From positions 7,378 through 71,377 of the forward strand of contig JAZKFU010000005.1 in NCBI GenBank assembly GCA_040386275.1: DNA of 64,000 nucleotides, in the 5' to 3' direction. Shown one piece after another: positions 7,045 through 33,555 of this stretch. The stretch's first letter is position 1; the number at the start of each line of letters is the position of its first letter. Under the pieces are notes generated by a model. It worked only from the letters and a program-made list of their open reading frames with translations. It searched no databases and had not been told where the DNA came from. Position numbers and translations under genes: made by a program. The stretch is from Patescibacteria group bacterium. Lineage in GTDB: Bacteria > Patescibacteriota > Minisyncoccia > Phycocordibacterales > UBA918.

Positions 7045-8139
7045 TTATTTATTCATCGGCATCACGAGATACCTCAGAGTGGTATCAGATACACCTTGGA
7101 TTACCAGAGGCCTTCCAATGCCGGCAAAGTGCATTATAAGACTATCGTCACTAATATGTGACAGCGGATCAATTAAGTACTGTTGGTTAAAATTAAGCGT
7201 AAGGTCCTCCCCTTCTGTTTGCACTTTAATCGTATCGGTAGTGGTTCCAACTTCACCATTCTGAGACGAAATAGTTAATTCCGAAGCAGCAATTTTAATA
7301 GTAACCTGCATAAACTTATTTAAAAATACTTGTGTCTTTTTAAATGACTGCAAAATATCACTCTTAAGCGCAGTGGTGTGTGTCACATACTCCTTAGGAA
7401 TAATCTGCTCATAGTCGGGAAACGAGCCTGAGACGAGTCGTGACGTGATATACACCCCTTCAGAAAACGAAAGCGCACATTGATTATCATTAATAATGAG
7501 AGTTGGATCAGTTTCAAGCAAATCACAGATACGAGCTAATTCAATTGCGTTCTTTTGGGGAATAAGAATAGTTTGATTGAGTATAAAATTCTTTTGCGGA
7601 ACAGTCTTTTCCATCAACCTAAAAGAATCAGTAGCCACAAACGTGAGTGAGTGTTCTTTTTTTTGTTGAATAAAAATACTGCCTAATTCCGGCTTAATAG
7701 AAGACTGCGAAGCAGCAAACGCCACTGTCTTTATTCCTAACGCAAAAAGATTTTTTTGGATTGGAGAACCACCCACAGTTAGTTTTACAATTGACGGAAA
7801 CTCATCATACGGAATAGCGTTAATGGTAGTTTTACCACTTCCACTATCAACTAAGAGCACACCTTCAGTAACAGAGAGCGTTACATCCTTTTTAGTAATA
7901 TATTGCACTGCTTGCATTAAGGTGGTGGCTGAGACTGCCACAATTCCCTCTTCTTCCACATTAGCTTCCACTACCACCTCAATTCCTATCTCTAAGTTAG
8001 TCGCTTTAAAAGTGACTGTACCTTCTTTAACAGTAATTAAGACACACTGTAGAACGGGTAACGTTACATGTTTGATACTTACTCGGGTAATGAGTTCTAG
8101 TGCGTGGATAAGTTTTTGTTGGTTGAGTATTATTTTCAT
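7045..8139 (-). CDS. dnaN: DNA polymerase III beta sliding clamp
   Basis: 364 aa, MKIILNQQKLIHAL N-terminus, located immediately downstream of dnaA. Confidence 0.93.
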   Translation of the reverse strand: MKIILNQQKLIHALELITRVSIKHVTLPVLQCVLITVKEGTVTFKATNLEIGIEVVVEANVEEEGIVAVSATTLMQAVQYITKKDVTLSVTEGVLLVDSGSGKTTINAIPYDEFPSIVKLTVGGSPIQKNLFALGIKTVAFAASQSSIKPELGSIFIQQKKEHSLTFVATDSFRLMEKTVPQKNFILNQTILIPQKNAIELARICDLLETDPTLIINDNQCALSFSEGVYITSRLVSGSFPDYEQIIPKEYVTHTTALKSDILQSFKKTQVFLNKFMQVTIKIAASELTISSQNGEVGTTTDTIKVQTEGEDLTLNFNQQYLIDPLSHISDDSLIMHFAGIGRPLVIQGVSDTTLRYLVMPMNK

Positions 8140-8496
8140 TTTTTTATATTTTACTCTCTCTTATTAGGGGTGTGGAAGTGTGCATAAGCTAAAAATATGT
8201 TGTATTTATAAGGCTACTGTAGCACCTTTATTTATAAAATACCTGTGTATTTATCTGTGCATACTGTTCATTTCTTTGGGGATAGAACTGGTCTTTTCAT
8301 AATATGGGTATAACTCACTCTTTTATACCCACTATTTTTTGTAAAAATTAGCAGTATCGACGGTTTATTAGCCACTAAACCAGCTCTTCTTCCCCAGGGT
8401 TACAAAGGATCATCCCCAGTTTATCCCACGTTGGTGGGTATAACTGATACTGCTGTATAAAATAAAACATCAGGTATCCTCGTGATACCTGATGTT
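8140..8496. promoter_or_regulatory. AT-rich dnaA-dnaN intergenic region (possible oriC part / DUE)
   Basis: 357 bp non-coding, AT-rich, degenerate DnaA-box-like words; hairpin 8464-8498 overlapping dnaA stop. Confidence 0.4.
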
Positions 8497-9882
8497 TTAT
8501 TTTAAGAGTAGTCGTACCTGAGTAATCTCTTCTTCTAGTTCGGCGTCTACTTTGAGGTCTCGTTTAATTTTTTCACAACTATGGATCACCGTGGTATGGT
8601 CTCTTCCTCCAAGTTTTTTACCAATGGCCGGGTACGATACCTGAAAATCTTCTCGTAAAATGTACATGATAATCTGTCTTGGCTTCACTACTTCTTTTCG
8701 ACGGGTCTTTTCGTAAATACTCGCTTGATCAATATCAAAGAAGCGTGCCACTTTATCAACTACATCAGAGACGGCTAGGGTTTTTCGGGGTCGACTACTG
8801 TTTTTAATAATCGCCTTTACCTCCTCGATAGTAAGGGTTCGTCCCAATAGTTGTGATTGGCACATAATGGTATTAAGAGCCCCTTCGAGTTCCCGGATGT
8901 TGCCTTCAATAGTTTGAGCGAGGTGTTCAACTACATCGTCAGCCAGAGAAATACTATTTTGCGCAGCTTTGGCGCGTAAAATAGCCGCTCGTGATTCTGT
9001 GTCGGGAGCAGGAATATCAACAATCATCCCCTGTCCAAACCGTGATCGTAACCGATCTTCCATACCAGCAAGTAACGCTGGGTGCATGTCACTTGAAAAC
9101 ACAATTTGCTTATTGGTGTCATGGAGCGCATTAAAGAGGTGAAATAATTCTTCTTGTGTCTTTTCTTTGGTGGCTAAGAACTGGACGTCGTCCATAATCA
9201 GAACATCATACTGGCGGTATTTGTCTTTAAAATTATTAGCAGTTCCACTTTGCAGCGCATTAAAGTAATCCACGGCAAACCGTTCACTGGTGACATAAAA
9301 CACCTTCTTACCAGTCTTTTTTACCTGATTACCTACCGCTTGAATGAGGTGAGTCTTACCGTGACCGGTTTTACCATAAATAAATAGTGGATTATACGCA
9401 ATTCCCGGCTTTTCACTCACAGTTTTAGCAGCTGCGTGCGCAAGCGCGTTGTAAGGGCCTACCACAAAGTTTTCAAAAGAATATTTTGGGTTAAGGTTAT
9501 CACTTTTATTGATGTAGTAATCCTCAAGCGGGAGAGCGGCATTAATGGTTTGAGTTTTATTGGTCTCCCCTCTTCTATCGCTCCGTTGTAGTACGGCGTA
9601 TTCAATACTCCGTACATAGGGAGTAATTTCACGCAGGGTTTTTAAAATCATTGACTGAAATTTATCAGCCAGCCAGTCCCGAACAAAAATACTCGGTACC
9701 CCAATAGTGAGGGTGCCGTCCTCAAGCGAAACAATGTGCGTGTCGCGAAACCAAGTCTTAAAGTTAGCAGGAGTGATTGATAGTTCAATCTTAACCAAGG
9801 CATTATCCCACAGACTTTTAACATCAATTTGCTCAGTTCGAACAATGCTATTGCTTTGATGTTGGTGTGTTACAGGAGGCAT
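8497..9882 (-). CDS. dnaA: Chromosomal replication initiator DnaA
   Basis: Walker A GKTGHGKTHL, AAA+ sensor motifs, C-terminal DNA-binding domain, 461 aa. Confidence 0.97.
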   Translation of the reverse strand: MPPVTHQHQSNSIVRTEQIDVKSLWDNALVKIELSITPANFKTWFRDTHIVSLEDGTLTIGVPSIFVRDWLADKFQSMILKTLREITPYVRSIEYAVLQRSDRRGETNKTQTINAALPLEDYYINKSDNLNPKYSFENFVVGPYNALAHAAAKTVSEKPGIAYNPLFIYGKTGHGKTHLIQAVGNQVKKTGKKVFYVTSERFAVDYFNALQSGTANNFKDKYRQYDVLIMDDVQFLATKEKTQEELFHLFNALHDTNKQIVFSSDMHPALLAGMEDRLRSRFGQGMIVDIPAPDTESRAAILRAKAAQNSISLADDVVEHLAQTIEGNIRELEGALNTIMCQSQLLGRTLTIEEVKAIIKNSSRPRKTLAVSDVVDKVARFFDIDQASIYEKTRRKEVVKPRQIIMYILREDFQVSYPAIGKKLGGRDHTTVIHSCEKIKRDLKVDAELEEEITQVRLLLK

Positions 9883-9995
9883 AGTGATAATATTTCTAAA
9901 GCTGTGTGAATTATACTGGGTGAAAAAAAACTGTAAATACTAAGGCAATAAAGTGACTAAAAAGTACCCCTCAGTATTGATACTCTTTATGCAAC

Positions 9996-10015
9996 TGTGG
10001 ATAACCTGTGGACAA
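9996..10015. promoter_or_regulatory. Two adjacent DnaA boxes (TGTGGATAA, TGTGGACAA) in the dnaA-rpmH intergenic region
   Basis: Exact reverse complement of consensus TTATCCACA plus a 1-mismatch copy 2 bp away. Confidence 0.65.
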
Positions 10016-10145
10016 TAATTTTTTATACCAACTGTCCATCCCCTATCGAGTCACTCGTACTATTATTATACGGATAGTGAGGGTCGGTTAACAGGTTGCG
10101 AACTTTAAAATATCATGTATAGTTCTACCACTAATTACATTTAAT

Positions 10146-10301
10146 ATGAGTAAACGAACCTACCAACCAAGTAAGCAGAAACGAGCCACTACCCACGGCT
10201 TCTTAGTGCGTATGGCAACTACTGCCGGAGCCAAGATTATCCGCGCTCGAAGACGAGTGGGACGTGCACGACTAACCGTTAAGCCCTCAAAAGCTCGATA
10301 A
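10146..10301 (+). CDS. rpmH: 50S ribosomal protein L34 (51 aa; missed by the >=60 aa ORF track)
   Basis: Translation [45 protein letters not shown]..., classic L34; rpmH-rnpA-yidC synteny. Confidence 0.9.
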
Positions 10302-10466
10302 ACAATTCTAAAAAGGCCCCATCTACGTTGTTGCCTGCACAGTTTATTAAGTTCATCGTACAAGAAGTACGTTTCACCTAAAAACTGCTGGTCGCCTAGT
10401 ATCTGGGGCCTTTTTAGAACCGTTTAATTACGCAAGGCAATATACTTTCTAGAGTATAATTTATAT

Positions 10467-10793
10467 ATGTTCAAAAAATCCGAACGTATCACCCGTACCG
10501 CTTTTACACAATACTTTAAAATTGGCCGTCGGTTCCATACTGATTTCTTTACGCTTATTTACTCCCCCGCCCCGGTGCGGGGAGTGGCGGTGGTGGTTGG
10601 AAAAAAAGTATTTAAAGAGGCAGTTGATCGGAATACGTTACGTAGACGGGTCTATGCGGCGGCACGCACTTCACTTCAAACGAGTACTGGTATCTATCTG
10701 ATTATCGCCAAGCCGACTGCTAAAAATCTGAATCAAAAAGACGTAGCTCCGGCAATAGCAGAGCTTCTCGCCACCGCGTTAAAAGCAAGGTAG
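10467..10793 (+). CDS. rnpA: Ribonuclease P protein component
   Basis: 108 aa basic protein downstream of rpmH, RnpA-like. Confidence 0.85.
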   Translation: MFKKSERITRTAFTQYFKIGRRFHTDFFTLIYSPAPVRGVAVVVGKKVFKEAVDRNTLRRRVYAAARTSLQTSTGIYLIIAKPTAKNLNQKDVAPAIAELLATALKAR

Positions 10794-10805
10794 AATAGCG
10801 ACATT

Positions 10806-11540
10806 ATGTTTAGTTATATTTGGCACACGATTTTTTTTGACCCGGTCTATAACGGACTGGTGTTTTTTATTGATGTAATGCCCCGAGGAGACGTGGGGTT
10901 AGCGATTATTGCCATCGTTATTTTGGTAAAGTTTTGTCTCCTTCCTTTGTCTATAAAGGCGGTCAAGACACAAAAAATTATGAAGGAACTTGAGCCAAAG
11001 CTCAAGGAACTCAAAGAAAAATTTAAAGACAAGCGGGAGGAACAAGCGAAGGCCATGATGGAATTATACAAAGAAGCGGGCATGAATCCGTTTGCTAGTA
11101 TTTTACTTTTGTTTATTCAAATCCCGTTTATCATTGCCATTTACTTCGCGGTGTCTAAGGGTGGAGGCGTTCCTCTACCGGGCATTAATACAGATATCCT
11201 CTATTCTTTTATTCCCAATCCGGTCATGGTTTCGATGGAATTTTTTGGCAGTATTGATATTACGCAAAAGAGTATGGCGCTCGCATTGCTCGCGGGTATT
11301 ACTCAATTTTTTAGTACCAAACTCTCAATGGCTTCGATGCCGTTAAAAGAGAAAGATAAAGATGCGGCCCCAAGTCTAAAAGATGATTTTGCTCGCAATA
11401 TGCAGTTTCAAATGAAATACGTTATGCCTGTTTTTATTATCTTCATCGCCTACAGCTTCTCTGCTACCATCGCCCTATATTTTGTAGTCAGTAACCTAGT
11501 CCAAATCGCTCAAGAGTTCTACGTACGAAAGCACCGGTAA
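10806..11540 (+). CDS. yidC: Membrane protein insertase YidC/Oxa1 (short form)
   Basis: Multi-TM, coiled KELEPKLKELKEKFKDKREEQAKAMMELYKEAGMNP motif typical of YidC. Confidence 0.88.
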   Translation: MFSYIWHTIFFDPVYNGLVFFIDVMPRGDVGLAIIAIVILVKFCLLPLSIKAVKTQKIMKELEPKLKELKEKFKDKREEQAKAMMELYKEAGMNPFASILLLFIQIPFIIAIYFAVSKGGGVPLPGINTDILYSFIPNPVMVSMEFFGSIDITQKSMALALLAGITQFFSTKLSMASMPLKEKDKDAAPSLKDDFARNMQFQMKYVMPVFIIFIAYSFSATIALYFVVSNLVQIAQEFYVRKHR

Positions 11541-11552: not shown

Positions 11553-12629
11553 TTATAGAATCGGATCGACGTAACCTTCAGGTACACATCCACGAGTGGA
11601 ATCCCATTGTGTAGTCGGGTCTGCATCGCACGCTACCCGGGCAGCTTCTTCCGCAGCTTCTTCCGCAGCTTCTGCTTCGGCAGCAAGGTCTCGAGGTATT
11701 GAACAAGTAACAGTGGTATCTGTAGCAGCAGTTACATACCCAGATCTATCGTAACAATCATCTCGAGCAGATTGGCAAAAGCCCCCTTGATTTATTGCGG
11801 CACCACCTCCTCTACCTCCACCACCACTAGTAGCTCCGGTACAGGTAATAGATTCTGTAGCACCATTTCTCACTAAGCACGTCTGGCCGTTACTGGTATA
11901 CACACCATTTATCCCACTACACGCTCCTGGGCAGGTATTGTAATCAGCACCATACACTTCACAACTTAGAACCGAACATTGCTGGCTATTTCCACCGCAC
12001 GAACTTCCTACCATAAGTTCAGCCAGGCGTTCATTACTTACGGCACATCGTATGGCTCCATTAGCTGTTTCTCGGAACACAAAACCATCTGCATTATTAC
12101 AATCATCCTGGCAAGAGGCGCCAGACCCGCCGGGTAAAAATTCACTTATGCCCGGCAATCGGTTCTGGCTATCAGTACATACTTGAATAGTACAGGTGCT
12201 ATTATCTGTTCCACAAAGTCTTCGTAATTCACCCTCAGGGCCAGTTAGAGGACGATCGTTAATGGGGAGAGTTTCAAGATCAAAATTTACATTCGTTAAG
12301 TCAGTGTTAATAGTATTAAGAATTACAATAGCACCGATGACAATTAAAAGTCCAATTAAAGCCCCTTGGATATCTTTTTTGGCTTCTTCTTTGGCTGGCA
12401 CTATGTCGGTGAGCATGTATTTTGCTCCCGCGGCGATAATTTTAATTACCGCAAGCAAAGCTGCAATACTAATAGAGAGTCTATAGAGGGCGTTAATATA
12501 TTGATTTAAACCACCTCCTACTACATCTACCCCCGGTATACCCACCAACATTCTAAATTCAGCTGCAAAAAGAGCACTTGGTGTTAAAAATCCGATTATC
12601 AGTAAGGAAATAAATAGTTTAGATTTCAT
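11553..12629 (-). CDS. VirB2/TrbC-like pilin domain fused to a C-terminal Cys-rich (about 22 Cys) extracellular domain
   Basis: Signal peptide MKSKLFISLLIIGFLTPSALFA, two hydrophobic helices separated by a short loop, then a Cys/Gly-rich 240-aa domain; start overlaps upstream gene stop (ATGAAATCTAA). Confidence 0.5.
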   Translation of the reverse strand: MKSKLFISLLIIGFLTPSALFAAEFRMLVGIPGVDVVGGGLNQYINALYRLSISIAALLAVIKIIAAGAKYMLTDIVPAKEEAKKDIQGALIGLLIVIGAIVILNTINTDLTNVNFDLETLPINDRPLTGPEGELRRLCGTDNSTCTIQVCTDSQNRLPGISEFLPGGSGASCQDDCNNADGFVFRETANGAIRCAVSNERLAELMVGSSCGGNSQQCSVLSCEVYGADYNTCPGACSGINGVYTSNGQTCLVRNGATESITCTGATSGGGGRGGGAAINQGGFCQSARDDCYDRSGYVTAATDTTVTCSIPRDLAAEAEAAEEAAEEAARVACDADPTTQWDSTRGCVPEGYVDPIL

Positions 12630-13797
12630 ACATCCAAAGTGTATTATCAGTTTTATTTGTAAAGTATAACACCCCGCCGTCACTACTGGTCTGCATAGTT
12701 GTAACGTCAATTGCTCTCCCTACGACTGATTCAGGGTTAATCAATTGTGAGGCGCTACCTTTAGATGCATCTATTCTCCATAGTTGATCAGAGTAGGAAC
12801 GAATTCCTTTATACCAATCGTCGGGAAATTCAGAACCATATGTTTCCTGGGTTGATCCACAGTAGAATATATTTAATTCAGTTTTTGAAAAGGCACATTT
12901 GTTTGGGTCTATAGTTGAAGCCAGGGTGCTGCTTGTTTTTTTGTCTACGGAATACGCCTGACTTGCAGGGCCGTTTCCTGTTTGTTTTGAAAAAATTACA
13001 TAATCACTATTGGCAAAGCTGGTTAATCCCCTCCCCTCAATTGGTAAGCGGTTAACAGTACCTCCTACAAAAGAATAGAGAAAACCGGTTAATTTTGCCG
13101 AGGCTTTTGGATATACATAATGTGGTGTTGTGGTAGTCATGCTCCATATAAAAGTTGCACTTTGAAATGGTACTGAAAAAAGTGTACGTATAGTTTTTGT
13201 AGTCGGGTTGAGTTCCTTTCCGGTTAAACCAACAGAACTAAATTCAGAATAAAGAAGTTGATTATTATCATTAAAATTAAAATCAACCATTTTGGGAATC
13301 AGGGTTACTTTAGTGGCGCTATTTTCTCCGGCTAGAGTTAAAAGTTCAACCGTGTTTTGAGCGCCATAACCTGATCGAATCGCAACGTATTCCCCGTTAG
13401 GGCTAAATTTTGCTAATTGAGGATTTGTAATTGTTATGTTTGAGAGACGGATTTCCGTTCCGGTCACAAGATCAATAGAAAAAACATGCCCAGTCCCCGC
13501 TTCGGCATACAACATTAATTGTTCATTATTAGTAATGCTTATTTTTTCTCCAAATCCAATGGTAGGTTTAAGGGTCAATTGTCTGAGCTGTACTAGATCA
13601 TCGACATCAACTTGACCATTGGTTACTTCGGGTATAAATGGTGTAAGGGGTGTAATATCAGAGTTTTCCGCAAAACTAAAATCAGTAAAAAATTGTTCAA
13701 TTGGTTTTGGTGTTCCATAAATAAGGAGGTATAACCAAATAGCTACTAGTAGTAGTATAGCGGATACTCCAGCGATAATAAGTAGTGTTTTATTCAT
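12619..13797 (-). CDS. Membrane-anchored secreted protein (possible beta-propeller), T4SS-cluster member
   Basis: N-terminal TM MNKTLLIIAGVSAILLLVAIWLYLL, operon context with VirB4/VirB6-like genes. Confidence 0.55.
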   Translation of the reverse strand: MNKTLLIIAGVSAILLLVAIWLYLLIYGTPKPIEQFFTDFSFAENSDITPLTPFIPEVTNGQVDVDDLVQLRQLTLKPTIGFGEKISITNNEQLMLYAEAGTGHVFSIDLVTGTEIRLSNITITNPQLAKFSPNGEYVAIRSGYGAQNTVELLTLAGENSATKVTLIPKMVDFNFNDNNQLLYSEFSSVGLTGKELNPTTKTIRTLFSVPFQSATFIWSMTTTTPHYVYPKASAKLTGFLYSFVGGTVNRLPIEGRGLTSFANSDYVIFSKQTGNGPASQAYSVDKKTSSTLASTIDPNKCAFSKTELNIFYCGSTQETYGSEFPDDWYKGIRSYSDQLWRIDASKGSASQLINPESVVGRAIDVTTMQTSSDGGVLYFTNKTDNTLWMYEI

Positions 13798-13798
13798 A

Positions 13799-14773
13799 TT
13801 AAAGCTTCACCTGGAATGAACTTTCATCACTTTGTAAAAGTTCTGAAAGGTTTCGAATTTTAAAACCAACACGGGCACTTCCGGCCGCTCCCCGTTCCAG
13901 GTTAATTTCGAATGGGTCAAAGTTGTTTGTTGGTGTTGGCCTGTTATTTATGCTCCACTCAGTAAAAAGATTGCCATTAATTGCTCTGGTGTCGAGGTAA
14001 TATGGTGCCGCTTTAATAGATGCGCTGTTACCAGTGAGAATAAACTCACTGGAAATTGCTTTTTGACCCAAACCAAGCAGGCTATTCATTTCGTAAAATT
14101 GCACATCAAGCTTAGCGGTTGGAATAGAAACTAACTTCCGAGCGACGGTGGTGTTATTTTTATCTTGTACGGAAATGGTGACGACACTCGTTTCACCATG
14201 CGGAACAACAATTTGTGCCCAATTCCCCCCTAGTCTCCCTCCTCCGTATACTGAATCGTTATTTAAGCTCCAAACATAGATGTAATTAGCACTATTAATT
14301 GGACCGTTTATATTTTGAAGCAGCGCATTAATATTAATGATGCTCCCTTTGGTAGGTAAAGCTCTTCCTTGATAAAAAACAGGAGTATAGGTTTGAGGTT
14401 CAACAATAAGGTCGAGGTAAAGGGGCGAGAGAATTCTTTTCGCTTCAATTTTTTGTCCGTTTGGATAAGTCAGACGGGCTATAACTGACATGGATTTACC
14501 AATCGCTGGTGCGGTAAAAGTAATTTTACGGAGGTTAGTAACCGCTGGAGCACTGAGTCCATCAAAATACCAAGTAATTGTTGCTCCGCTTCCGTTGAGA
14601 GCATAATCATCAAGGGTGGCAGTGACTTGTTCGTCAGGATTAGGAAATTGAGGATTAAGAATAATACTCACGTTTTCACCTGTTATTTCTGCAATACTGC
14701 TCCCCACTTGAGCACATAAGATAGTTGTCGGCGTCGCGAGCAATAAAAAAAATATAATAGCAATCAATCGCAT
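13799..14773 (-). CDS. Secreted hypothetical protein (start moved to MRLIAIIFFLLL signal peptide)
   Basis: Signal peptide; the longer ORF would overlap the upstream gene by 82 nt. Confidence 0.5.
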   Translation of the reverse strand: MRLIAIIFFLLLATPTTILCAQVGSSIAEITGENVSIILNPQFPNPDEQVTATLDDYALNGSGATITWYFDGLSAPAVTNLRKITFTAPAIGKSMSVIARLTYPNGQKIEAKRILSPLYLDLIVEPQTYTPVFYQGRALPTKGSIININALLQNINGPINSANYIYVWSLNNDSVYGGGRLGGNWAQIVVPHGETSVVTISVQDKNNTTVARKLVSIPTAKLDVQFYEMNSLLGLGQKAISSEFILTGNSASIKAAPYYLDTRAINGNLFTEWSINNRPTPTNNFDPFEINLERGAAGSARVGFKIRNLSELLQSDESSFQVKL

Positions 14774-14820: not shown

Positions 14821-15591
14821 TTATTTTGGATAAGCGGCCACTGCCCACGCCCAAATAGCCGTCATGGGCACAATGGGTAAAAAGCAACTTATAATCGCAC
14901 AAAGGAAGAGACCAGTTTTTAAAGTGGTAGCGTTACCAAATAATGGATGAAGTCGCATTATTTTGGCACCTAGTAGTGCGCCGAGTAAAAGTACTCCCCC
15001 TATAATGGCAAGTAAGGCAAAGGCCGCGCTTGCCAGTGCACTCAAATCGGAATACTCAAACCCTACTACCCAACCCACATTTTGCACCACTTTGTCAGCG
15101 GCCCAGGCCAGCCAGGATTCTTCAACTTGGGTCGACATACCTAAAAGAATTCCCCCAATAGACGCAAGTAATATCTGTATGGGCCAGAGCGTAAACGCAA
15201 TGCTGGCGACAATGCCACCAAACGATACTCCGCGAGCTCGTGCGAGGATGGTAATTTTTGGTTTATTGGCGTCGAGCGCAGTATCGTTGCTTGCCATTAT
15301 TTGTTGTTCTTCTCTGTAGTAGCGCTGATCCACACGTTCATTGCGTGGACTGATCTCAGTTTCCTTTAAAGATTCATTTCGGCCTTGGTAACGTCGGGCA
15401 GTTGTACGTTTACGCCGTCCATCTTCACTAGGTCGTGAAGTAAGGGTTCTCGGTTGATTCCCATTTTCTATTCGTGAATTTTGTATACCTGAGTCATTTT
15501 CCGAGGAGTTTCTAAAGCGCAGGTTGGGATTATTATAACCTTCTTCAAATTCCGAGGCTATATCACGTTGTTTGGGGCCAAAAGTTGCCAT
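14821..15591 (-). CDS. Integral membrane protein with long hydrophilic N-terminus, T4SS-cluster member
   Basis: C-terminal multi-TM region; tightly packed in operon upstream of the VirB4-like gene. Confidence 0.5.
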   Translation of the reverse strand: MATFGPKQRDIASEFEEGYNNPNLRFRNSSENDSGIQNSRIENGNQPRTLTSRPSEDGRRKRTTARRYQGRNESLKETEISPRNERVDQRYYREEQQIMASNDTALDANKPKITILARARGVSFGGIVASIAFTLWPIQILLASIGGILLGMSTQVEESWLAWAADKVVQNVGWVVGFEYSDLSALASAAFALLAIIGGVLLLGALLGAKIMRLHPLFGNATTLKTGLFLCAIISCFLPIVPMTAIWAWAVAAYPK

Positions 15592-15606: not shown

Positions 15607-17403
15607 CTACAACTGACTCTCGTTTAATTCCTTGCGCGCATTTTTGATTTGGAGAATTTGAGAAGGGTCCGAGGTGATGATTTGATCTTCCGTGTATGAA
15701 GCAATCACTTTAATAGCGACGTGTTTTAACCCGACGAAGAATAAGCCCTCCCCCACATCTGATTCCAGTAACAAGAACTTTTCTTCATCTGTTAAGTTAA
15801 ACGTGCGTTGAATGTTATCAATGGCGGTAGGTGATTGTTTCATTAAAAATTGAAGCGACGAGTTTGTAATCATCGGTACCCCGTACGGTGAGCGTAAAAA
15901 GTCGTCCACGTCTTGCGTTATAGTAGCAATACCTAAAAAGTATTTTCGTCCTCGTTTAGCCAAACTAAACAAGAAAGAAGCAGTGTCTTCAGATTTCATC
16001 ATCCACCAGGCTTCATCAATCACCAGTAGTCGTTTAACCAAGCGACGACGAATAGCAGCCCAGATGTAGTTGGTCACGATAAACATGGCGATGGTTTTTA
16101 ATTCATCTTCCATGTCTCGGAGTGAAAACACCACAAATTTCTGTTGAATATCAACGTTGGTGGGGTGGTTCATAAAACCAGACCAAGTACCAGAGGTATA
16201 TTTTTGTAATCGACTAATTAACGAGGCGCTCCCATTCATTCCGGCAAGCACCATTTCAAAGTCCGAGAGTAGTGGCGGTTCAAGATCTTTAAAGTTACTT
16301 TGTTCGGTAATATCCTTTAAGGCGTAGGTTTCGCGAATCGCTAAGTCAATAATTGTCTCTTCTTCAGGCGCTAGTCCGCCTAACATTAATTTAAAAAGTC
16401 CAATTAAATGAACGATCTGTGATCGCAGTACGTCAGCTGGTTCCTCGTCATCTCCTGGAGGTGGTAGATCAAAGGGGTTAATGTGGTGTTTTGAAGAAAG
16501 TGAAATATTAAAAAATCGTCCGCCGGTGGCTTCTGCTAAGTACTCGTATTCACGCTCCGGGTCAATCACGATTACCTCTGACCCAAACATAAGGGATCGG
16601 AGAATTTCTAACTTAATACTGTATGACTTCCCGGCTCCCGAGGTCGCAAAGGTAACAGAGTTGTAGTTCGTTAATCCAAAACGATCAAATAATACCAATG
16701 ATGAGTTGTGGCGATTGATACCATATAAAATTCCCGTGTCTGAAGTGAGGTCAAACGAAGTAAACGGAAAGAAGCTAGAAAGTGGTGAGGAGTTAAATTT
16801 ACTGTGGGTCATTAACTCATCGGTTCCGGTTGGAATAATACTTTGCAGTCCGGGTTCTTGGCGGAAGAGGGCGGGTTTGATGTAAATGAGTTTAGAGTCA
16901 AGGATACCTTTAATGTCATTTTCGACTTTATTTAGTTTGGCGTCGTCTTCTCCATAAACCGCAATGTATAGCCCGACATCAAATAACTTTTCTTCGGCTT
17001 GTTGGAGCTTGTCGCGCAAATCCTCAAGGTTACGATAGGCCGCTTCAAGTTGCGGGTCACGCACTTCCCCGCGCTCGGCACGAATATTAATTTGACTCTG
17101 TACCTCCGCTACTTTTTTCTGAAATTTCTTTAAAGTTTCGGCAGTACTAATCGGGTGAATCACAATGGTCACATCGAGTTCCTTTTCCATGTTGAGTACT
17201 GGTTCAAGCCAGCCGTCATTTAAAAAGCGGGGGTAGGATACTGCATAAAATACGCGGGCGGAGGTACCGCTAATATTAATACTGCCGGGTTTGATACTAA
17301 CAGCCGAAGGAGCGATAACGTCAGCCAGCGTTAAAAGACTTTCACTAATCGCGATTTGATTTTCATCTAATTTTTTTGGTCGTAGATTATCGAGAAGTCC
17401 CAT
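15607..17403 (-). CDS. virB4: VirB4/TrbE/CagE-family type IV secretion ATPase, C-terminal 598-aa part
   Basis: Walker A FATSGAGKS, Walker B LLVIDEAWWMM, CagE/TrbE-family conservation throughout. Confidence 0.9.
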   Translation of the reverse strand: MGLLDNLRPKKLDENQIAISESLLTLADVIAPSAVSIKPGSINISGTSARVFYAVSYPRFLNDGWLEPVLNMEKELDVTIVIHPISTAETLKKFQKKVAEVQSQINIRAERGEVRDPQLEAAYRNLEDLRDKLQQAEEKLFDVGLYIAVYGEDDAKLNKVENDIKGILDSKLIYIKPALFRQEPGLQSIIPTGTDELMTHSKFNSSPLSSFFPFTSFDLTSDTGILYGINRHNSSLVLFDRFGLTNYNSVTFATSGAGKSYSIKLEILRSLMFGSEVIVIDPEREYEYLAEATGGRFFNISLSSKHHINPFDLPPPGDDEEPADVLRSQIVHLIGLFKLMLGGLAPEEETIIDLAIRETYALKDITEQSNFKDLEPPLLSDFEMVLAGMNGSASLISRLQKYTSGTWSGFMNHPTNVDIQQKFVVFSLRDMEDELKTIAMFIVTNYIWAAIRRRLVKRLLVIDEAWWMMKSEDTASFLFSLAKRGRKYFLGIATITQDVDDFLRSPYGVPMITNSSLQFLMKQSPTAIDNIQRTFNLTDEEKFLLLESDVGEGLFFVGLKHVAIKVIASYTEDQIITSDPSQILQIKNARKELNESQL

Positions 17404-17408: not shown

Positions 17409-18041
17409 TTATTGTATCGTAGGAGCGGAGCCAGTGATATCACCGGGGTTGTATATGTGATAAAACAGCTCAACTAATTCGTCTGTTTGAAGTGCAATCG
17501 TACGAACTCCCATGCGATTAAGTCCTTGTTCCACCACCGCTTGGCGTTGCTCAAGTTGGAGTCGCTGTTCTTCTAGAGTAGCTTCGTTTTGTAACCCGGC
17601 CCGGCCTTGGTTTAAAATGCCTTTAAAACCTTGTGTAATATTAATTTTGTTTGGCGTATACGGCACAATCACAAAAAAGTTTTTACTCATCACATCAACT
17701 TCAACGGTAAAACTGCGAATAAATTCAATATATTCGCGTAACTGGACGCGCATTAAATCATTATCCTGACTCCCCTGCCGTTCGGCGAGCATGGCTAGAT
17801 ATGGTTCGATGTTTAATCGACGTGACTGCACGTAAATTTGTAGAGAAAAATCGATAGTATTAAGAAAGTTTTGAAATTGAAACAAGATGGCACGTTGTTC
17901 ATCTTGTGATTTGAGTGCAAAGTTAACTGACGAAGCTAACAGTACTTTACAAATCTGGCCAGATTTTAATATCACAATGCCGTCGCGAATGTCGCGAATT
18001 GAAACAAAGTCTTGAGTTGCTGCAGAAGTATTGGTAGCCAT
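17409..18041 (-). CDS. VirB4/PrgJ N-terminal domain (210 aa), separated from the ATPase part by TAA plus 5 nt (frame change)
   Basis: DFVSIRDIRDGIVILKSGQICKVLLASSVNFALKSQDEQ pattern matches VirB4 N-terminus; 210+598 aa is about full-length VirB4. Confidence 0.65.
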   Translation of the reverse strand: MATNTSAATQDFVSIRDIRDGIVILKSGQICKVLLASSVNFALKSQDEQRAILFQFQNFLNTIDFSLQIYVQSRRLNIEPYLAMLAERQGSQDNDLMRVQLREYIEFIRSFTVEVDVMSKNFFVIVPYTPNKINITQGFKGILNQGRAGLQNEATLEEQRLQLEQRQAVVEQGLNRMGVRTIALQTDELVELFYHIYNPGDITGSAPTIQ

Positions 18042-18047: not shown

Positions 18048-18467
18048 TTAATCCTTTTTTTCCATGGCTTTAAGTTCCAAACGGCGCGCCAAAGACGTAA
18101 TATCCTTTTTTTGGTTATGGGTCGGATTCATCATAATAGGATTACGAATAGTCGTGGTGGGCGTAAAAGTTTCTTTATGAACAATTTCTCGTGTTTGTTG
18201 CCATAGATAGAGCCGTTTCCGACGATAGTGGTTATACATCGCCTCCAGAAAGTGAGAAAAGGGACGATTGTTAACGGGGTAAAACGCTAAAGCGGCGGTA
18301 AAAAGTCCAATTAAAAATGCCGGAATAATAGCGAGGAAAAACGGTAATGTTAAGAGTAACACCACGACCATTCCCCCACCGCCACCCAAATACAAAAATT
18401 GCCGCCACGTAAATGGACCTACAATCTTGTCTTCTATTTCGATGAACTGCGGGACTTCAAACTGCAT
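18048..18467 (-). CDS. Small two-TM membrane protein, VirB3/PrgI-like
   Basis: 139 aa, hydrophobic core GGGGGMVVVLLLTLPFFLAIIPAFLIGLF, immediately upstream of VirB4 as in monoderm T4SS loci. Confidence 0.5.
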   Translation of the reverse strand: MQFEVPQFIEIEDKIVGPFTWRQFLYLGGGGGMVVVLLLTLPFFLAIIPAFLIGLFTAALAFYPVNNRPFSHFLEAMYNHYRRKRLYLWQQTREIVHKETFTPTTTIRNPIMMNPTHNQKKDITSLARRLELKAMEKKD

Positions 18468-18526: not shown

Positions 18527-19444
18527 TTAGCTCCAGCGAGATTCATCTGTATCAGGCTTTGCTGGTACTGGTTGTGTGTATGTCGGCACACCCACGGCAG
18601 TTCGTTCGAGGGTTGGCTGGGTCGATACGTAGATAGGTTCATCAATATTCGCTACTGCATTAAATGTAGTCCGGGCCGGTGATCGTTCCTGAGCCATATC
18701 CGACGCCATGGTTCGAATTTCTGGAATTGCAGACTGTTGTTCGAAATGTACTGGTGTAGAAGGTTCTAATGGGGACTGGGTACTATTAGATAGTGGTGGA
18801 TTAGAAGCTTCAAACTCCTCTTCCTCGTCATCTCCTGGTGGTTGCCAGTTAGGATCAGAAAGTGGTTTTAGAAACTCTTGTATATCAATCGCAATTTTTT
18901 CGGCTGTAGTGGTATCAAGTGCTAGTTCCTGCTGAAGAAGGGCTGCAGTATCTTCAATTTTATAAAAGCCCAGAGCAATATCTCCAATAACTATAAGAAA
19001 CTGTTTAAAGGAAACAACCTCAAAAAGATTGTTAGTAGTATAAATTTCAGCAACTTCAATTTTACACTTGGGAGCGTGAATAAAATAGGCTTTATGTGGA
19101 TCATGGTTCATTTGGTTAGTTCGTAATTCTGTAGAAATTTGCGGGGCAAGTGTTGTGTAGTCATTTTCAGTAAGAAAAAAATGAAAACAAAGCTCAGTGA
19201 CAGGCGTAATTAAACTGCTGTTTAAATTGTTTTTACTAATGTAACTTTCTAAATCATTTGATTCTGATAAATTCAAAACCGTGTTACTTATATGCAGTAC
19301 CAAATCACGAATAATTACACTAGTTAGTTTCCCCGCAAGTTTTTTTTGTAAATATTTCGAAATTATATTTGAATCAATAAAATTCTGCGTCTGAGGACTT
19401 GCTTGTCGGTAGGCTTCAATAAATTTTTCCCAATTGTAAAACAT
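18527..19444 (-). CDS. Hypothetical protein (acidic C-terminal tail), T4SS-cluster member
   Basis: 305-aa ORF in operon; no recognisable motif. Confidence 0.45.
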   Translation of the reverse strand: MFYNWEKFIEAYRQASPQTQNFIDSNIISKYLQKKLAGKLTSVIIRDLVLHISNTVLNLSESNDLESYISKNNLNSSLITPVTELCFHFFLTENDYTTLAPQISTELRTNQMNHDPHKAYFIHAPKCKIEVAEIYTTNNLFEVVSFKQFLIVIGDIALGFYKIEDTAALLQQELALDTTTAEKIAIDIQEFLKPLSDPNWQPPGDDEEEEFEASNPPLSNSTQSPLEPSTPVHFEQQSAIPEIRTMASDMAQERSPARTTFNAVANIDEPIYVSTQPTLERTAVGVPTYTQPVPAKPDTDESRWS

Positions 19445-19447: not shown

Positions 19448-21649
19448 TTAAGCAAAGTTTATACCTAACTGCGCGCCATACACGGTATTGTCAGACCATT
19501 TACGCCACATTTTAAGCGAAGAAGGATTGGCAGAGGTAGCATGAATAACATTAGCTTCAATATTGTTTCGTATTTCTTCCAATTGTGATGAGTTGATAGC
19601 ACCAGTTTTCATTTTTTCTTCTACCATTTGTGGTGTTAAGTACTGTGCCATTGCTGGCTTTGTAAACACCTCGGTCGGCATTTTAGCAATATCTTGAACA
19701 CTTCGGTTCATAAGTTTTTGTCTTTGTTTGCTTGTAACGGTAGTAGAAGAAGCTGCTGAAGGAATGGATCCAGACGTTATGCTATGACCAGTTGCGGCAA
19801 TATTAGTAAAGGCATTAGTACGGGAGGCTTTAATTTCTGAAATCTCTTGTCTTGAGAATTTACCTGACTTTTCCAATGATTCGATGTGACCGTCAGTTAA
19901 ATGAGCTGCAATTTGAGTACTTTTAAGTTTGTTTATACCCAAATCAGTGCGCTGTTCATCACTCATCTCTTTAATAGTTTTGCCAAGTGTTTCAAAGGCT
20001 GAGTTCAATTCATCAGCAGTGGCTGATGTTTTAGCGAGAGTAGAGTCGGCATTTTTAAATGAGTTTACCCGTTCAATATCATCTCCTTTACGTTCATCAG
20101 CTCTGCGAGTTTGGTCTGCTCTAGCACTAATTCCAGCAGCATATTTTCTTTGCTCTTTATTTGAGCCAACTGTTCCTAATTTTGCATTACTAGCTGATTC
20201 AGCTGCGCCCCGTAAAGCACGATCAACTGTATTAGTGCTTGCTAATTTTCCTAATACACCCCCTCTCGCCTGGAGCCTGTTAAGACCACGCTCTGACATT
20301 TCTCCCGCCTTATTTACAGCCATCCGTGTACCAGCACGTGGCATGTAGGTAATGGCATTTTTAGCTCGACCAGTAATATTTTTTCCAAATGATGCAGTCA
20401 TCGTGGCACCGTGTGCGCCCATTTTTTTAGCTACCACAATAGAGGCTACTAAAAAGACAATCACCATCGCAAAAAATGGAATGGTTGGATCAATCGCAGA
20501 AGTGCTACCGGCAAATCCACCTTGAGAACCGTCTTGCGTTGTGCCAAACACGTAGGCAAAACTTCTTTGACTTGAAGGAAAGGACGAGGCAACTCTATAG
20601 GATAGATAGAGCATAAACATAAACGCTGGTGCAAAAAATGCTTGGCGGAGGAATCCACTCCAGTAGTCACGGGAATAATGTTGAAGGGCAGGAAATACCC
20701 ACCCAAGAAACATAAAAGGTGAAAAAACCATATAGATACACAATACGACGAATCGAATCATTATCATTAACGCGCCCGCTAAAAATACGTATCCTAAAAC
20801 CAATAGTACTATTGCCAGACCGACAACATATTGATATCCACCTTCAGTTTGAATATACGAAACTCCCAAAATCTCATTAATACCCATTAAATTTTTGAAC
20901 GATTCCGTTAGACTAAAAACTCCCGGACTAGTGCCCGCAAAAGCCGTATATATTTGATACGCAGCTATATTAGAAAAATCAACGACAAATTTAGTTATAA
21001 ATAAACTAAAGTTTACCAAGAGAGCTGCTCCTATTAAAGACACGAGCATTTTTCGAGCACTACTGTCACTACTGTCTAAAATCATTTTAAACCCGATATA
21101 CACGAGTCCAAAAATAAACGTTAGATTAAAAATATCGCGAACAGTGGTCCATAAGTTGTCTATGTTTTGACCGATATTTTGATTCAAATACAATTCCCCA
21201 AAACCGATAATAAAATTATTTACGGAGTAGTCAAACATGTACCCTATCTGACCTACCACCCACCCTAAGCCGGTGACAAAGATGGCGTGTAGTAGTAAAA
21301 GTACAGGGTCACTCGTTCCTCCTGTTTGCACTAAGGGTACCGGTTCTGTTTGATTTGCACTCCCCGAATAATCGTCACCATAAGGCACATTTCCTGCTCC
21401 AGTTCCGCCTGTGGCCCCACCACCTGTGCCGGCACCGGGTCCGTTACCTCCAACTGGAAATGTTCCAGGTCCTCCAACAGGTATTGGTGGAGGATTAGCT
21501 GCACCGCCTGAATCAGCTCCTCCGCCTTGAGCAAGTACCTGAGCAAAACTGCTTAAGAAGAGTGTACTTAATATTAAGAGTAAAAAGACAAAGGAAATAC
21601 CCCGTTTACCTAATTTATCTCCACTGAAAATACCGACCAAATAAGTCAT
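19448..21649 (-). CDS. Polytopic membrane protein, VirB6/TrbL-like, with Gly-rich N-terminus and long C-terminal hydrophilic extension
   Basis: Signal/TM, GGxG-rich segment, 6-7 TM helices, 733 aa; architecture of VirB6/TrbL. Confidence 0.5.
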   Translation of the reverse strand: MTYLVGIFSGDKLGKRGISFVFLLLILSTLFLSSFAQVLAQGGGADSGGAANPPPIPVGGPGTFPVGGNGPGAGTGGGATGGTGAGNVPYGDDYSGSANQTEPVPLVQTGGTSDPVLLLLHAIFVTGLGWVVGQIGYMFDYSVNNFIIGFGELYLNQNIGQNIDNLWTTVRDIFNLTFIFGLVYIGFKMILDSSDSSARKMLVSLIGAALLVNFSLFITKFVVDFSNIAAYQIYTAFAGTSPGVFSLTESFKNLMGINEILGVSYIQTEGGYQYVVGLAIVLLVLGYVFLAGALMIMIRFVVLCIYMVFSPFMFLGWVFPALQHYSRDYWSGFLRQAFFAPAFMFMLYLSYRVASSFPSSQRSFAYVFGTTQDGSQGGFAGSTSAIDPTIPFFAMVIVFLVASIVVAKKMGAHGATMTASFGKNITGRAKNAITYMPRAGTRMAVNKAGEMSERGLNRLQARGGVLGKLASTNTVDRALRGAAESASNAKLGTVGSNKEQRKYAAGISARADQTRRADERKGDDIERVNSFKNADSTLAKTSATADELNSAFETLGKTIKEMSDEQRTDLGINKLKSTQIAAHLTDGHIESLEKSGKFSRQEISEIKASRTNAFTNIAATGHSITSGSIPSAASSTTVTSKQRQKLMNRSVQDIAKMPTEVFTKPAMAQYLTPQMVEEKMKTGAINSSQLEEIRNNIEANVIHATSANPSSLKMWRKWSDNTVYGAQLGINFA

Positions 21650-21701: not shown

Positions 21702-23390
21702 CTAAAGGTTAAGTGCTTGTCGCCAACGGGTACGATTCTGGTCTATGGTTAATTGAGTGGTAAGAGTGCCTCCAGTGACCAATGTAGAGTATTCTAATGC
21801 CACATCATTTCGTATTGAGGTAGGTGATGATGTTGAAGCACTTGAGCCAATAACCGGCACGTCAGCATTGTTGTACCTCGAAATTAAGCTAGTAAGTCTA
21901 GAAACATTGGCGGTAGTTCTTGGAACAATCACATTGAGTTCTGAAACAAGGGTTGTAAGTTGGGTAACCACCCGTGCTCCTTCTGCTTCAAGTCTGGTAA
22001 AGGTAAAGGTTGGTAACGTTGTGGCAAGCGTTCTGTCGTCAGACATGGTAGCGATGACACTTAAAGCATTGCTAATAGTGTCTAATTGAGTTTGTACTAC
22101 GGTTAGGTCGGCTCGCTCTTGAGTAGTGGGGCTATCACTAAGGGCCGTGGAAACCTTACTACGAGCGCTCGTGAGGGTGTCTGAGCGGGTGATGTTGGCG
22201 AGGTTGGTGCCGGGGTTACCAGCAGCAAATAAGTTGGTAATGGCACTTTGACTGGCTGCTACCAGGCTTAATCTTCGGCTGGCTTCACTTAAGGTGCCCG
22301 AAGTCAGAGTGAGATAAGACTGTTCGGTTGTAAGAGAAGTTTGCATTTGTGACAGAGTGGCACTAGTGTTTAGTGATCCCTGGTCAACCATATCATCAAG
22401 GTAGGCACGAGTGCTTGATCCATTCAAACTGTAATCAGTATACCCAGTACCCTCACTTAGTCCCAACAGACCATTAATTCCCTCCATGGCAGCGGTTACG
22501 AGTTGATTTAACAGTGCGCCAATAAGTTCGTTAATTTCGTCTGCTTCAATAAGAGAGCGTGGTCCGGTTGAAAGTTGAAAGGTTAGTGCTTCAGAAATTA
22601 CTTGTCCCGGGGTTGAAATAGTACAGTTTTCTCGACCGCCACTACCTTCAATAGTCTCACATATTTTTTTTGATAAAAAACCATCTCCCCAGCTCGCCAC
22701 CTCAATTTCCTGGCCAGCTTCATTTTTTAATTTAATATTAAGTCGAGCCTGCGCTTCAAGGTAGGCCCCATAGGGAGTGTTTTGTGGACTACTCGTAACA
22801 TCTAGCCACTCTCCCCACCCTCCATCAGAAACTCCCGCAAAAAAACCTTCAATATTATTGGCTATATCAGAGAGTCTACAAGCGGGTGCGGTTGGTCCTG
22901 AGGGCATTCCACTGCGTGCTTGAGCGTAGGAAACGCTCAAAGCAGCTTGCACATCCAATCGAAACGGCGAACAAATAAATTCACCAATTCCACCGAGACT
23001 TCTTATATATTCTCCAGCTGCAGTATCCAAGGCATCAAGTAAAAAAGCGTTTAAATCGGTAATAAACGCGGGACTACCTTCAAAGCCCGAGTTAATCCAG
23101 TTAATCAAACTGCGAGTCATGCTACTGACCATTTGTTTGGCAATGGCCCAGCCAATTCCGTCAAGAACAGTTTCTTTTAATACTAAGCTATTAACACCAA
23201 CCGCCGTAGCTGCGTTTGATAATGCCGATGATGCTAATTCCGCTTGTTGGACAATCTGCATTCCTAATGTCGCTCCCCCGCCTGCTCCTCCCGCTTCTGC
23301 TTTATGGGTCGGTACCGAAACAGCAAAGACAGTCATGAGCAAGAAGCATGACAATGCAAGGACAGAATATTTTTTAAGGCGGTAATACAT
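21702..23390 (-). CDS. Large secreted protein (562 aa) with Ser/Thr-rich C-terminus
   Basis: Signal peptide MYYRLKKYSVLALSCFLLMTVFAVSVPTHKAEA. Confidence 0.55.
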   Translation of the reverse strand: MYYRLKKYSVLALSCFLLMTVFAVSVPTHKAEAGGAGGGATLGMQIVQQAELASSALSNAATAVGVNSLVLKETVLDGIGWAIAKQMVSSMTRSLINWINSGFEGSPAFITDLNAFLLDALDTAAGEYIRSLGGIGEFICSPFRLDVQAALSVSYAQARSGMPSGPTAPACRLSDIANNIEGFFAGVSDGGWGEWLDVTSSPQNTPYGAYLEAQARLNIKLKNEAGQEIEVASWGDGFLSKKICETIEGSGGRENCTISTPGQVISEALTFQLSTGPRSLIEADEINELIGALLNQLVTAAMEGINGLLGLSEGTGYTDYSLNGSSTRAYLDDMVDQGSLNTSATLSQMQTSLTTEQSYLTLTSGTLSEASRRLSLVAASQSAITNLFAAGNPGTNLANITRSDTLTSARSKVSTALSDSPTTQERADLTVVQTQLDTISNALSVIATMSDDRTLATTLPTFTFTRLEAEGARVVTQLTTLVSELNVIVPRTTANVSRLTSLISRYNNADVPVIGSSASTSSPTSIRNDVALEYSTLVTGGTLTTQLTIDQNRTRWRQALNL

Positions 23391-23391
23391 A

Positions 23392-27481: not shown

Positions 27482-27799
27482 AACGGTGACACTATACCAT
27501 ACCTGGTAAAAAAACCATTAATTAGATTTAATAAAGTGTCAATAGAATAAAAACAGTTATTTTTATACCTATTTCGACCCTTCCCTCCCTCGACTGGGGA
27601 AAGTGCATTACGTCAATTGTACTTACGGAAGACTCTAGTAGAATTAGCGCATTACCAACGTGTGGTAACGGCAGAAGAGCCTTTGGCTCTTTTTGTTTCG
27701 ACAAAATTTCCTGTAGCGGTTGTACGGCGGCGTGTCCATAACTTAACAACTATTCAACCAACTCCACCAAAGTCCAAAACAATTCTCGTACTTGACCGT

Positions 27800-30462: not shown

Positions 30463-30594
30463 AATGAGTGTCCCACAATTAGAATATTTTTTCTGTTAGT
30501 AATTCTCCCAGTACCTTGGTTCTTGACCTTGTATCTTTGACTCATTAAACCGGCTGCCAATTTCAGAAAGTCTTGCCACTTTTGTAAAGTGTTG

Positions 30595-30822: not shown

Positions 30823-30832
30823 ACATTAACAA

Positions 30833-31576: not shown

Positions 31577-31708
31577 AAATATTGAGTTTGAGATTAAAGT
31601 TTGCTTCGAAACGAAGATATTTTATATTAGCATCATTGCTGTTTAATGGCTAAATGAAATACTAAAAATGACCTGCAAAGTGCAGGTCATTTTCAATAAA
31701 GTAAAGTA

Positions 31709-33520: not shown

Positions 33521-33555
33521 AGGGACAATTACTAGAATAGCTGTCCCACATTTAG
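33521..33555. promoter_or_regulatory. Dyad-symmetric site GGGACA-N14-TGTCCCACATTTAG, near-copy of the island-terminal recombinase half-site
   Basis: GTCCCACATTTAG vs island left end GTCCCACAATTAG (12/13); inverted GGGACA arm 14 bp upstream. Confidence 0.55.

Follow-up and report, generated by a model that had tools for sequence, protein, structure and literature searches.

A near-invariant pilin core with a hypervariable cysteine-rich tail in an origin-proximal type IV secretion system of a Patescibacteria genome

We analysed a 64,000-nt stretch of a Patescibacteria group bacterium genome (GenBank assembly GCA_040386275.1, contig JAZKFU010000005.1, positions 7,378 to 71,377 of the forward strand; the whole stretch is called the window here). 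The gene in question, located at 11553–12629 (−), codes for a 358-residue pilin-like protein, followed by a stop codon. It is the last of 11 genes of the same strand, running from 24288 down to 11553, which form a type IV secretion system (T4SS)-like operon. An original prediction, made from the DNA letters, had described its product as a VirB2/TrbC-like pilin fused to a Cys/Gly-rich extracellular domain. The stop-to-stop frame covers 11556–12719 (−), and translation from the ATG at 12629 gives the 358 residues. This ATG overlaps the stop of the upstream gene (12619–13797) by 11 nt and is supported by its alignment with the MK... starts of all homologues. A protein identical to the 358 residues is present at NCBI under the name 'MAG: pilin [Patescibacteria group bacterium]'. 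The predicted gene is thus real, as judged by the open frame, the homologue-aligned start and the identical database entry.

Hydropathy analysis located three hydrophobic segments (residues 1–22, about 44–73 and about 85–110), and an AlphaFold2 model based on a 66-sequence alignment (mean predicted local distance difference test score, pLDDT, of 78) placed helices at residues 3–21, 40–76 and 80–107. The signal peptide, residues 1–22 (MKSKLFISLLIIGFLTPSALFA|AEF; 12564–12629 (−)), is indicated by hydropathy, by the helix 3–21 and by its alignment in homologues; it ends in ...ALFA|AEF at a predicted cleavage site. The mature N-terminal segment which follows (residues 23–39; 12513–12563 (−)) is modelled with pLDDT below 50 for residues 23–35. 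Directly after the predicted cut it carries an F..LVGIPG motif, kept in 66/66 aligned relatives with G30, P32 and G33 invariant, which could be a processing or assembly signal. The two-helix pilin core (residues 40–112; 12294–12512 (−)) was delimited by Pfam family PF18895 over residues 40–107, NCBIfam family NF045849 over residues 41–107 and the AlphaFold2 helices, and consists of the helix 40–76, a charged loop PAKEEAKKD, the helix 80–107 and an N.DLT motif. The remainder of the protein, residues 113–358 (11556–12293 (−)), is a hypervariable Cys/Gly-rich tail with 18 Cys, predicted to be extracytoplasmic.

The tail contains all 18 Cys of the protein (residues 139–348) and most of its 41 Gly. 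Cysteine amounts to 7.6% of the tail, versus 0.53% in the 44 other open reading frames (ORFs) of the window (binomial P ~2e-15), and this composition is therefore not due to chance. The original prediction of a disulfide-rich C-terminal domain of 240 residues holds as to the Cys/Gly-rich tail, the length of which is 246 residues. Its count of about 22 Cys is too high: even 21 are reached only when the untranslated upstream part of the stop-to-stop frame is included. Likewise, the acidic AEAEAAEEAAEEAA stretch which it had placed at the end of the protein is followed by further structure, being a predicted helix (residues 315–335) with a 2-Cys beta-hairpin and the ...DPIL terminus after it.

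After a variable linker modelled at pLDDT 52–58 (residues 113–135), the tail is predicted to be a string of small alpha/beta units; AlphaFold2 gives the same picture whether the full protein (mean pLDDT 78) or just the tail (mean pLDDT 76) is modelled. The first unit is a 6-Cys module (residues 139–195; 12045–12215 (−)) of spacing C-x6-C-x4-C-x21-C-x3-C-x17-C and the second a 6-Cys module (residues 211–251; 11877–11999 (−)) of spacing C-x6-C-x4-C-x9-C-x3-C-x13-C. Both have a common predicted layout consisting of a short strand, a CxxxC helix and a beta-hairpin. An internal repeat comprising these two modules finds weak support in sequence (z = 1.7 to 3.6); Cys spacing and layout are common to both. 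A 4-Cys module (residues 263–309; 11703–11843 (−)) includes a low-confidence Gly-rich loop (GGGGRGGG), then a helix and a beta-hairpin. The last unit (11580–11687 (−)) joins an Ala/Glu-rich helix (residues 315–335) to a 2-Cys C..W..C beta-hairpin (residues 334–350); it is the best-modelled part of the tail (pLDDT 90–98) and recurs at the end of 22 other tails. The C-terminal ...VDPIL (11556–11570 (−)) belongs to a P-(P)-I-[LIMS] motif found at the end, or at most 1 residue from it, in 7/117 tails. The other six tails are those of homologues P0007, P0009, P0040, P0047, P0051 and P0053, and the motif is no sortase signal.

Searches for relatives of the tail were performed at the sequence and structure levels. 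With Pfam at E <= 1 the query tail gave no match to EGF, TNFR or any other domain, and no tail domain common to the 66 relatives was found in the same library. The EGF- or TNFR-like pattern that had been suggested as a check was thus not found, nor was any other known domain or fold. A phmmer and profile search of all PDB sequences returned low-complexity noise only. Foldseek comparisons of the full and tail-only models with the PDB, and of the tail with BFVD, gave nothing below E = 0.09 (best E 0.09–0.25, probability <= 0.28). Secretin N-domains and KH domains, which are small alpha/beta strings, were the best of these weak matches and were not taken as homology. Against 1.84 billion cluster representatives, phmmer with the tail found 4 matches, all of them pilin fusions; a profile of 12 tails against a 5.8-billion-protein set found 3, all pilins, in a search which the word prefilter appeared to hamper. 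Since the tail is matched in pilins only, it looks like an extension diversifying in place on the pilin rather than a mobile domain borrowed from elsewhere, as far as sequence comparison can tell. The tail appears to represent a fold family rich in disulfides, for which Pfam, the PDB and the viral structure library offer no detectable relative.

The core was, by comparison, assignable. The original prediction saw in the signal peptide and the two closely spaced hydrophobic helices the architecture of a T4SS pilin, and this is borne out by hydropathy, the AlphaFold2 helices and a match to the whole Pfam T4SS_pilin profile PF18895 (positions 4–71 of 71; E = 9.6e-4; 19.6 bits, a sub-threshold score weighed below). 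Among the 66 relatives, 62 match PF18895 at E <= 0.01 (best 3.1e-7), and several bear a precomputed PF18895 label. The core also aligns with positions 9–76 of the 80 in NF045849 (Mbov_0395, the pilin-like protein of a Mycoplasma integrative and conjugative element), at 21 bits and E = 1.9e-4, under the cutoff of 40. The protein would belong with the Patescibacteria T4SS_pilin family and is likely a 'VirB2 homologue'. One trait of TrbC/VirB2 proteins, a small mature subunit with no extra domain, is lacking since the 246-residue tail follows the core. A tblastn search of 72,556 plasmids with the core gave no match. A local hidden Markov model (HMM) built from pilin cores found no second pilin gene in the window, and a search there for further paralogues or silent tail cassettes was negative as well. 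The adhesin-tipped pilin put forward by the original prediction is therefore unlikely: the window has a single pilin gene, and the tail would be present on each subunit.

The core motif could be placed in 119 homologues, and their comparison revealed a sharp division between core and tail. Mean identity to the query is 77.5% over the core (residues 40–112) and 10.3% over the tail. At a threshold of E < 1e-5, similarity is found for every one of the 6,786 core pairs and for 476 tail pairs (7%), the latter forming 29 single-linkage groups. When related tails are aligned, modules are seen to be added, lost and reshuffled, and only cysteines are kept. Tail length ranges from about 50 to about 310 residues, with a few relatives almost tail-less. 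Nevertheless, a Cys-containing tail is present in 117/119 homologues (median tail 196 residues, 10 Cys), so that the conservation of the fusion, which had been proposed as a check, is confirmed. The fusion had also been called unusual, which is true in comparison with classical VirB2 and the 126–138-residue Saccharibacteria pilins; within its own lineage a tail is the norm.

The strong constraint on the core suggests many protein–protein contacts, such as a polymer or a tightly fitted subunit of a machine would make. This bears on an alternative in which the product is a non-polymerising surface protein, its hairpin acting as a two-span anchor or fixed channel subunit and its tail as an adhesin or receptor-binding module beside the pore. 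Such an alternative is in line with reports that monoderm T4SSs mostly have no pili and use surface adhesins (PMC12102498, PMC12857230), and with the fact that a PrgB-type adhesin is undetected in Patescibacteria (PMC12102498), so that the adhesin role is vacant. The weak sequence similarity to true VirB2 agrees with it too, as does a tail which far exceeds anything on known VirB2 pilins; pilus formation has been proposed for Saccharibacteria pilins of only 126–138 residues. However, a plain anchor would not need 77% identity across genera, an invariant loop and the LVGIPG motif, and by position and family the gene acts as the pilin gene of its cluster. Overall we hold the non-polymerising protein to be unlikely, while granting it real weight.

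The tails also show a striking regularity in cysteine number, which is even in 115/117 Cys-containing tails (P ~4e-32). Even parity of this kind is, at the level of sequence, a signature that would be expected of fully disulfide-bonded extracytoplasmic domains. Together with the topology forced by the signal peptide and two spans, it agrees with the surface exposure of the tail anticipated by the original prediction. No thioredoxin, VKOR or DsbA-type genes turned up in scans of the window.

P-type pilins are known to be processed at the C-terminus, as in the trimming of RP4 TrbC. By analogy, the tail might be cleaved after export so that a short pilin assembles, and the Cys-rich piece would be discarded or serve as a secreted factor. 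The variable, low-confidence linker at 113–135 would suit a protease site, and the few nearly tail-less relatives indicate that the core can exist alone. On the other hand, the sequence beyond the N.DLT end of the core shows no conserved motif for cleavage, and none of the operon genes was recognised as coding for a dedicated peptidase. Nor would a piece destined for disposal call for 4 to 24 paired cysteines and a confident fold. We therefore regard a cleaved pro-pilin as quite improbable.

The same division is seen at close range. Relative to the closest genome (L001), identity is 97% for VirB4, 92% for PrgI, 92% for the 210-residue TrsD-like protein, 88% for yidC and 87% for the pilin core (56 of 60 residues over 41–100), then 69% and 57% for the exported neighbours of 324 and 392 residues, respectively; the pilin tails have no significant similarity. 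The machine is thus best conserved in its cytoplasmic and membrane components, identity falling off steeply towards the exposed ones.

Two further arrangements at related loci are informative about the tail. In locus L009, two pilin paralogues (7771–8619 and 9776–10639) flank a homologue of the 324-residue gene and share 481 bp of 100% identical DNA (7850–8330 = 9849–10329), a stretch that spans the mature N-terminus and the core and reaches into the first residues of the tail. Their signal peptides and tails are unrelated. This pair suggests tail exchange, or core homogenisation, by recombination. In the pilins at L006:9560–10663 and L008:9395–10672, a Cys-rich segment of about 130–150 residues lies between signal peptide and core in addition to the C-terminal tail. 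The core can therefore bear ectodomains at its two ends, which fits a position of both termini on the outer side of the membrane.

The pilin gene lies about 3 kb from virB4 on the same strand. Immediately upstream of it, the operon encodes a 392-residue protein with one N-terminal transmembrane segment and no family match (12619–13797 (−)), then a 324-residue secreted protein (13799–14773 (−)), also with no family match and a conserved partner of the pilin gene. These are preceded by a gene for a 256-residue protein (14821–15591 (−)) with a polar N-terminal region of about 110 residues and 3 C-terminal transmembrane segments. The VirB4-like ATPase (15607–17403 (−)) is of the CD1110 family, that is, of monoderm type (NF045971, 362.9 bits for a cutoff of 325; TraG P-loop, 1e-25). 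The 210-residue TrsD-like protein (17409–18041 (−)) matches the N-terminal domain of full-length VirB4; its matches to TrsD and to this domain are sub-threshold, and its position agrees with them. VirB4 appears to be split, because the 210-residue protein corresponds to the N-terminal domain (CD1110 and Mbov_0397 families) and TrsD, and the 598-residue protein to the rest. Further upstream are a PrgI family, VirB3-like protein (18048–18467 (−); 46.2 bits for a cutoff of 27) and a 305-residue protein of no assigned function (18527–19444 (−)). A 733-residue polytopic protein with about 7 transmembrane segments (19448–21649 (−)) occupies the VirB6/PrgH position; it is syntenic in relatives and has no HMM match. 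Finally, two genes (562 and 298 residues; 21702–24288 (−)), each with one N-terminal transmembrane or signal segment, are likewise syntenic in relatives. Apart from VirB4, the 210-residue protein, PrgI, the 733-residue protein and the pilin, the products of the operon are membrane-anchored or secreted and have no family match.

On the other side of the pilin gene, dnaN, dnaA, rpmH, rnpA and yidC occupy 7045–11540, with yidC converging on the pilin gene. The locus is the chromosomal origin region, not a plasmid. VirB5, VirB7, VirB9 and VirB10 were not found in scans of the window proteins. Among the ORFs of at least 100 residues scanned over the 64 kb, which covered all but a few that were short or overlapping, neither a relaxase nor a type IV coupling protein was present. 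This accords with their published absence from most Patescibacteria clusters (PMC12102498).

To place the operon among its relatives, one genome per species was scanned, which gave 9 loci carrying record labels of Kaiserbacteria, Paceibacterota, Nomurabacteria and 'Saccharibacteria' MAGs. The genome carrying the query pilin is itself close to Candidatus Kaiserbacteria. As far as contigs reach, the common gene order is 298, 562, VirB6-position, 305, PrgI, 210, VirB4, (256) and 324, followed by 392 and the pilin gene, and the loci converge on yidC-rnpA-dnaA-dnaN. The pilin gene is in or beside the T4SS cluster in 9/9 loci, and this recurrent order shows that its linkage to the T4SS is conserved. 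The 392-residue gene adjoins the pilin gene or the 324-residue homologue in all 9, in varying order. The 392- and 324-residue exported proteins evolve faster than the cytoplasmic machine parts and may be pilus-associated or surface partners. Two doubts had accompanied the original prediction, namely a simple signal anchor instead of VirB2-like helices and homologues unrelated to T4SSs; the helices are present and the homologues are T4SS-linked.

These data also bear on the possibility that an unrelated secreted Cys-rich membrane protein happens to lie beside T4SS genes. The query does score below the curated thresholds of both pilin families, which is what such a protein might do. Yet the same adjacency recurs in 9/9 loci, the gene starts before the stop of the preceding operon gene, and 62/66 relatives match PF18895. 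Chance adjacency is excluded by the synteny, and an unrelated protein is accordingly the least credible explanation by far, with next to no probability left to it.

Six of the 9 loci (L004–L009) are labelled 'uncultured Candidatus Saccharibacteria'. Their DnaA proteins, where the gene is on the contig, are 71–86% identical to that of the window, which was judged the same range as the 87–88% of the Paceibacterota and Nomurabacteria loci. Their pilins are tailed, unlike the short Southlakia pilins, and the taxonomic labels of these loci may be unreliable.

Beyond the operon, some 3 kb away and past ksgA and uvrD, a gene at 27617–28849 (+) encodes a protein with LysM and M23 peptidase domains. 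VirB1-like proteins with LysM/M23 domains were described in a 2025 survey, with an association of VirB1 and virB4 specifically in Paceibacteria (PMC12102498). It is followed by a T2SS-G/type IV-type pilin gene (29184–29738 (+); N_methyl and T2SSG), whose product has 6 Cys and is the second most Cys-rich protein of the window (3.3%). A comM/yifB-type Mg-chelatase gene is present in two separate parts, the C-terminal one at 29866–30462 (−) and the N-terminal one at 42794–43744 (−). The roughly 12.3 kb between the two parts (30463–42793) have a GC content of 0.35–0.38, versus about 0.42–0.45 elsewhere, and carry a large serine recombinase (34393–36165), a second resolvase-like ORF, an AAA_25 protein, a MutH-like endonuclease with a C5 DNA methylase and a HATPase_c_3 protein. 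This DNA looks like a mobile island integrated into comM.

Taken together, we favour, with modest confidence, a reading in which the protein is the sole VirB2-like pilin of an origin-proximal Patescibacteria T4SS and its conserved assembly core displays a fast-evolving, disulfide-locked surface module, probably for host contact. The precursor would be exported by Sec, with the signal peptide presumably cut after residue 22. Because a signal peptide is followed by two spans, helices 40–76 and 80–107 are expected to form a membrane hairpin with the invariant PAKEEAKKD loop in the cytoplasm, and the same topology would leave the tail outside the cell. There the tail would fold as a string of small alpha/beta modules held by nine disulfides, as suggested by Cys parity and the moderate-confidence AlphaFold2 models. 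By analogy with VirB2 systems, VirB4, the VirB3-like PrgI and the VirB6-position protein could extract the hairpin and assemble a pilus or a short conduit. Within a filament of VirB2 type the arrangement would be that of the F pilus, with the loop lining the lumen and the two termini on the outside, so that each subunit would display a tail. To judge from the pattern of variation, this exchangeable surface would most likely be one of host-cell contact and specificity, or else a decoy under phage or host-defence pressure, serving evasion of whatever targets the pilus.

Several points weigh against this reading. The PF18895 score of 19.6 bits is under the Pfam gathering threshold of 26.6, and the match to TrbC/VirB2 (PF04956) is weak (13.9 bits, E = 0.064, cutoff 27.9), with only 5/66 relatives reaching this family at E <= 0.01. 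Aligned by hhalign with Agrobacterium VirB2, the core profile matches over only 18 columns in the first helix (P = 0.0045, probability 8%); the match beats shuffled and reversed controls, yet is weak. The VirB2 sequence used was 99.2% identical to the annotated virB2. F TraA did no better than a shuffled control in hhalign against the core profile. The interhelix loop has no net positive charge, hence the positive-inside rule adds no support. With about 25 kDa of tail per subunit, packing on a VirB2-type helix may be difficult, and the L009 duplication could be an assembly artefact. Variation alone cannot tell host recognition from evasion or relaxed constraint.

A bolder version of the favoured reading can be drawn, which we put forward as tentative and rather doubtful. 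It envisages a 'bottle-brush' T4SS filament on single-membrane, Kaiserbacteria-type cells of the Candidate Phyla Radiation (CPR), with a disulfide-locked recognition module of unseen fold on every subunit, the modules being swapped by recombination at the core and setting which host cells can be attached to. The swapping of modules between genomes is suggested by the identical cores and different tails of the L009 paralogues. Such a filament would be a functional counterpart of the divergent short-pilin arrays of Saccharibacteria, analogous to the exchange of receptor-binding proteins in phages.

A central question is by what means CPR/Patescibacteria episymbionts recognise their hosts and exploit them. 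Here, in a large branch of the phylum, the sole T4SS pilin combines a core that hardly varies with a tail more variable than any other protein segment of the locus, which makes the tail a concrete and testable candidate for a determinant of host specificity. If the favoured reading is true, it would extend the range of what VirB2-type pilins can carry; if the tail is cleaved or the protein stays unpolymerised, what is left is a pilin-family protein, already annotated, whose extension is uncharacterised. The T4SS, its origin-proximal place, the VirB2-like pilins of Patescibacteria (2023–2025) and the name 'pilin' for this protein are known already. No mention of Cys-rich or hypervariable extensions on these pilins was found in the literature searched, most subscription journals being outside its scope.

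The query resembles VirB2, TrbC and TraA in its cleaved leader, its two hydrophobic helices with a short polar loop and its coding with virB3 and virB4. Mature classical pilins are of about 70 residues with no extra domain, and T and P pilins are cyclised head to tail. In contrast to the latter, the 246-residue tail rules out head-to-tail cyclisation here. The query system further differs from classical ones by its marginal pilin similarity, the lack of any VirB5, VirB7, VirB9 or VirB10 found and the single-membrane cell. In the F pilus, for which a thickness of 87 Å was measured, the loop lines the lumen and both pilin termini face outward (PMC5018250), so that a C-terminal addition would show on the filament. 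The Mycoplasma protein of family NF045849 is, like the query, a small VirB2-like two-helix protein encoded beside a monoderm-type VirB4; with a profile of only 80 positions its family seems to have no tail, and it is part of a mobile conjugative element, versus a chromosomal system here. A conserved polymerisation core combined with a variable exposed part, for specificity or antigenic variation, is also found in type IV pilins, with their disulfide-bonded D-region, and in flagellins, with hypervariable D2/D3. The design logic is the same, by analogy only, since folds and assembly machines are unrelated.

The closest known systems are those of other Patescibacteria. A survey of 3,035 genomes (Quinonero-Coronel et al. 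2025) described a monoderm-type (MPF-FATA-like), usually relaxase-less T4SS, often beside dnaA, dnaN, rnpA, rpmH and ksgA, with VirB2-like pilins found by PF18895 and PF04956 in 1,948 assemblies (PMC12102498). The operon studied here is of the same type, a monoderm cluster with VirB4, VirB3/PrgI, TrsD-like and putative VirB6-like proteins and no relaxase found, near dnaA, dnaN, rnpA, rpmH and ksgA. In a preprint on a metagenomic structure atlas, PF18895 dominates the freshwater-specific structural clusters, which would fit many tails on one core, a link that its authors leave unstated. Southlakia epibionticum, the one organism tested in this respect, requires the T4SS and its pilin array for epibiotic growth (PMC10633639; review PMC12857230), and PF18895 pilins of this organism have been tied to TrbC/VirB2 by structure-based annotation (PMC10633639). 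The Southlakia pilins SEML1_0014–0019 and those of the survey share with the query a match to PF18895, sub-threshold in the query, as well as the signal peptide and the two-helix core. They differ in size and organisation: SEML1_0017–0019 are of 126–138 residues, from a sequence-divergent array of six, versus 358 residues for the query, and the pilin arrays of the survey average about 25% identity. Pilin diversity at the present locus is thus organised in the opposite way to Southlakia-type arrays, with one gene in which a near-invariant core (77%) carries a large variable tail of 246 residues.

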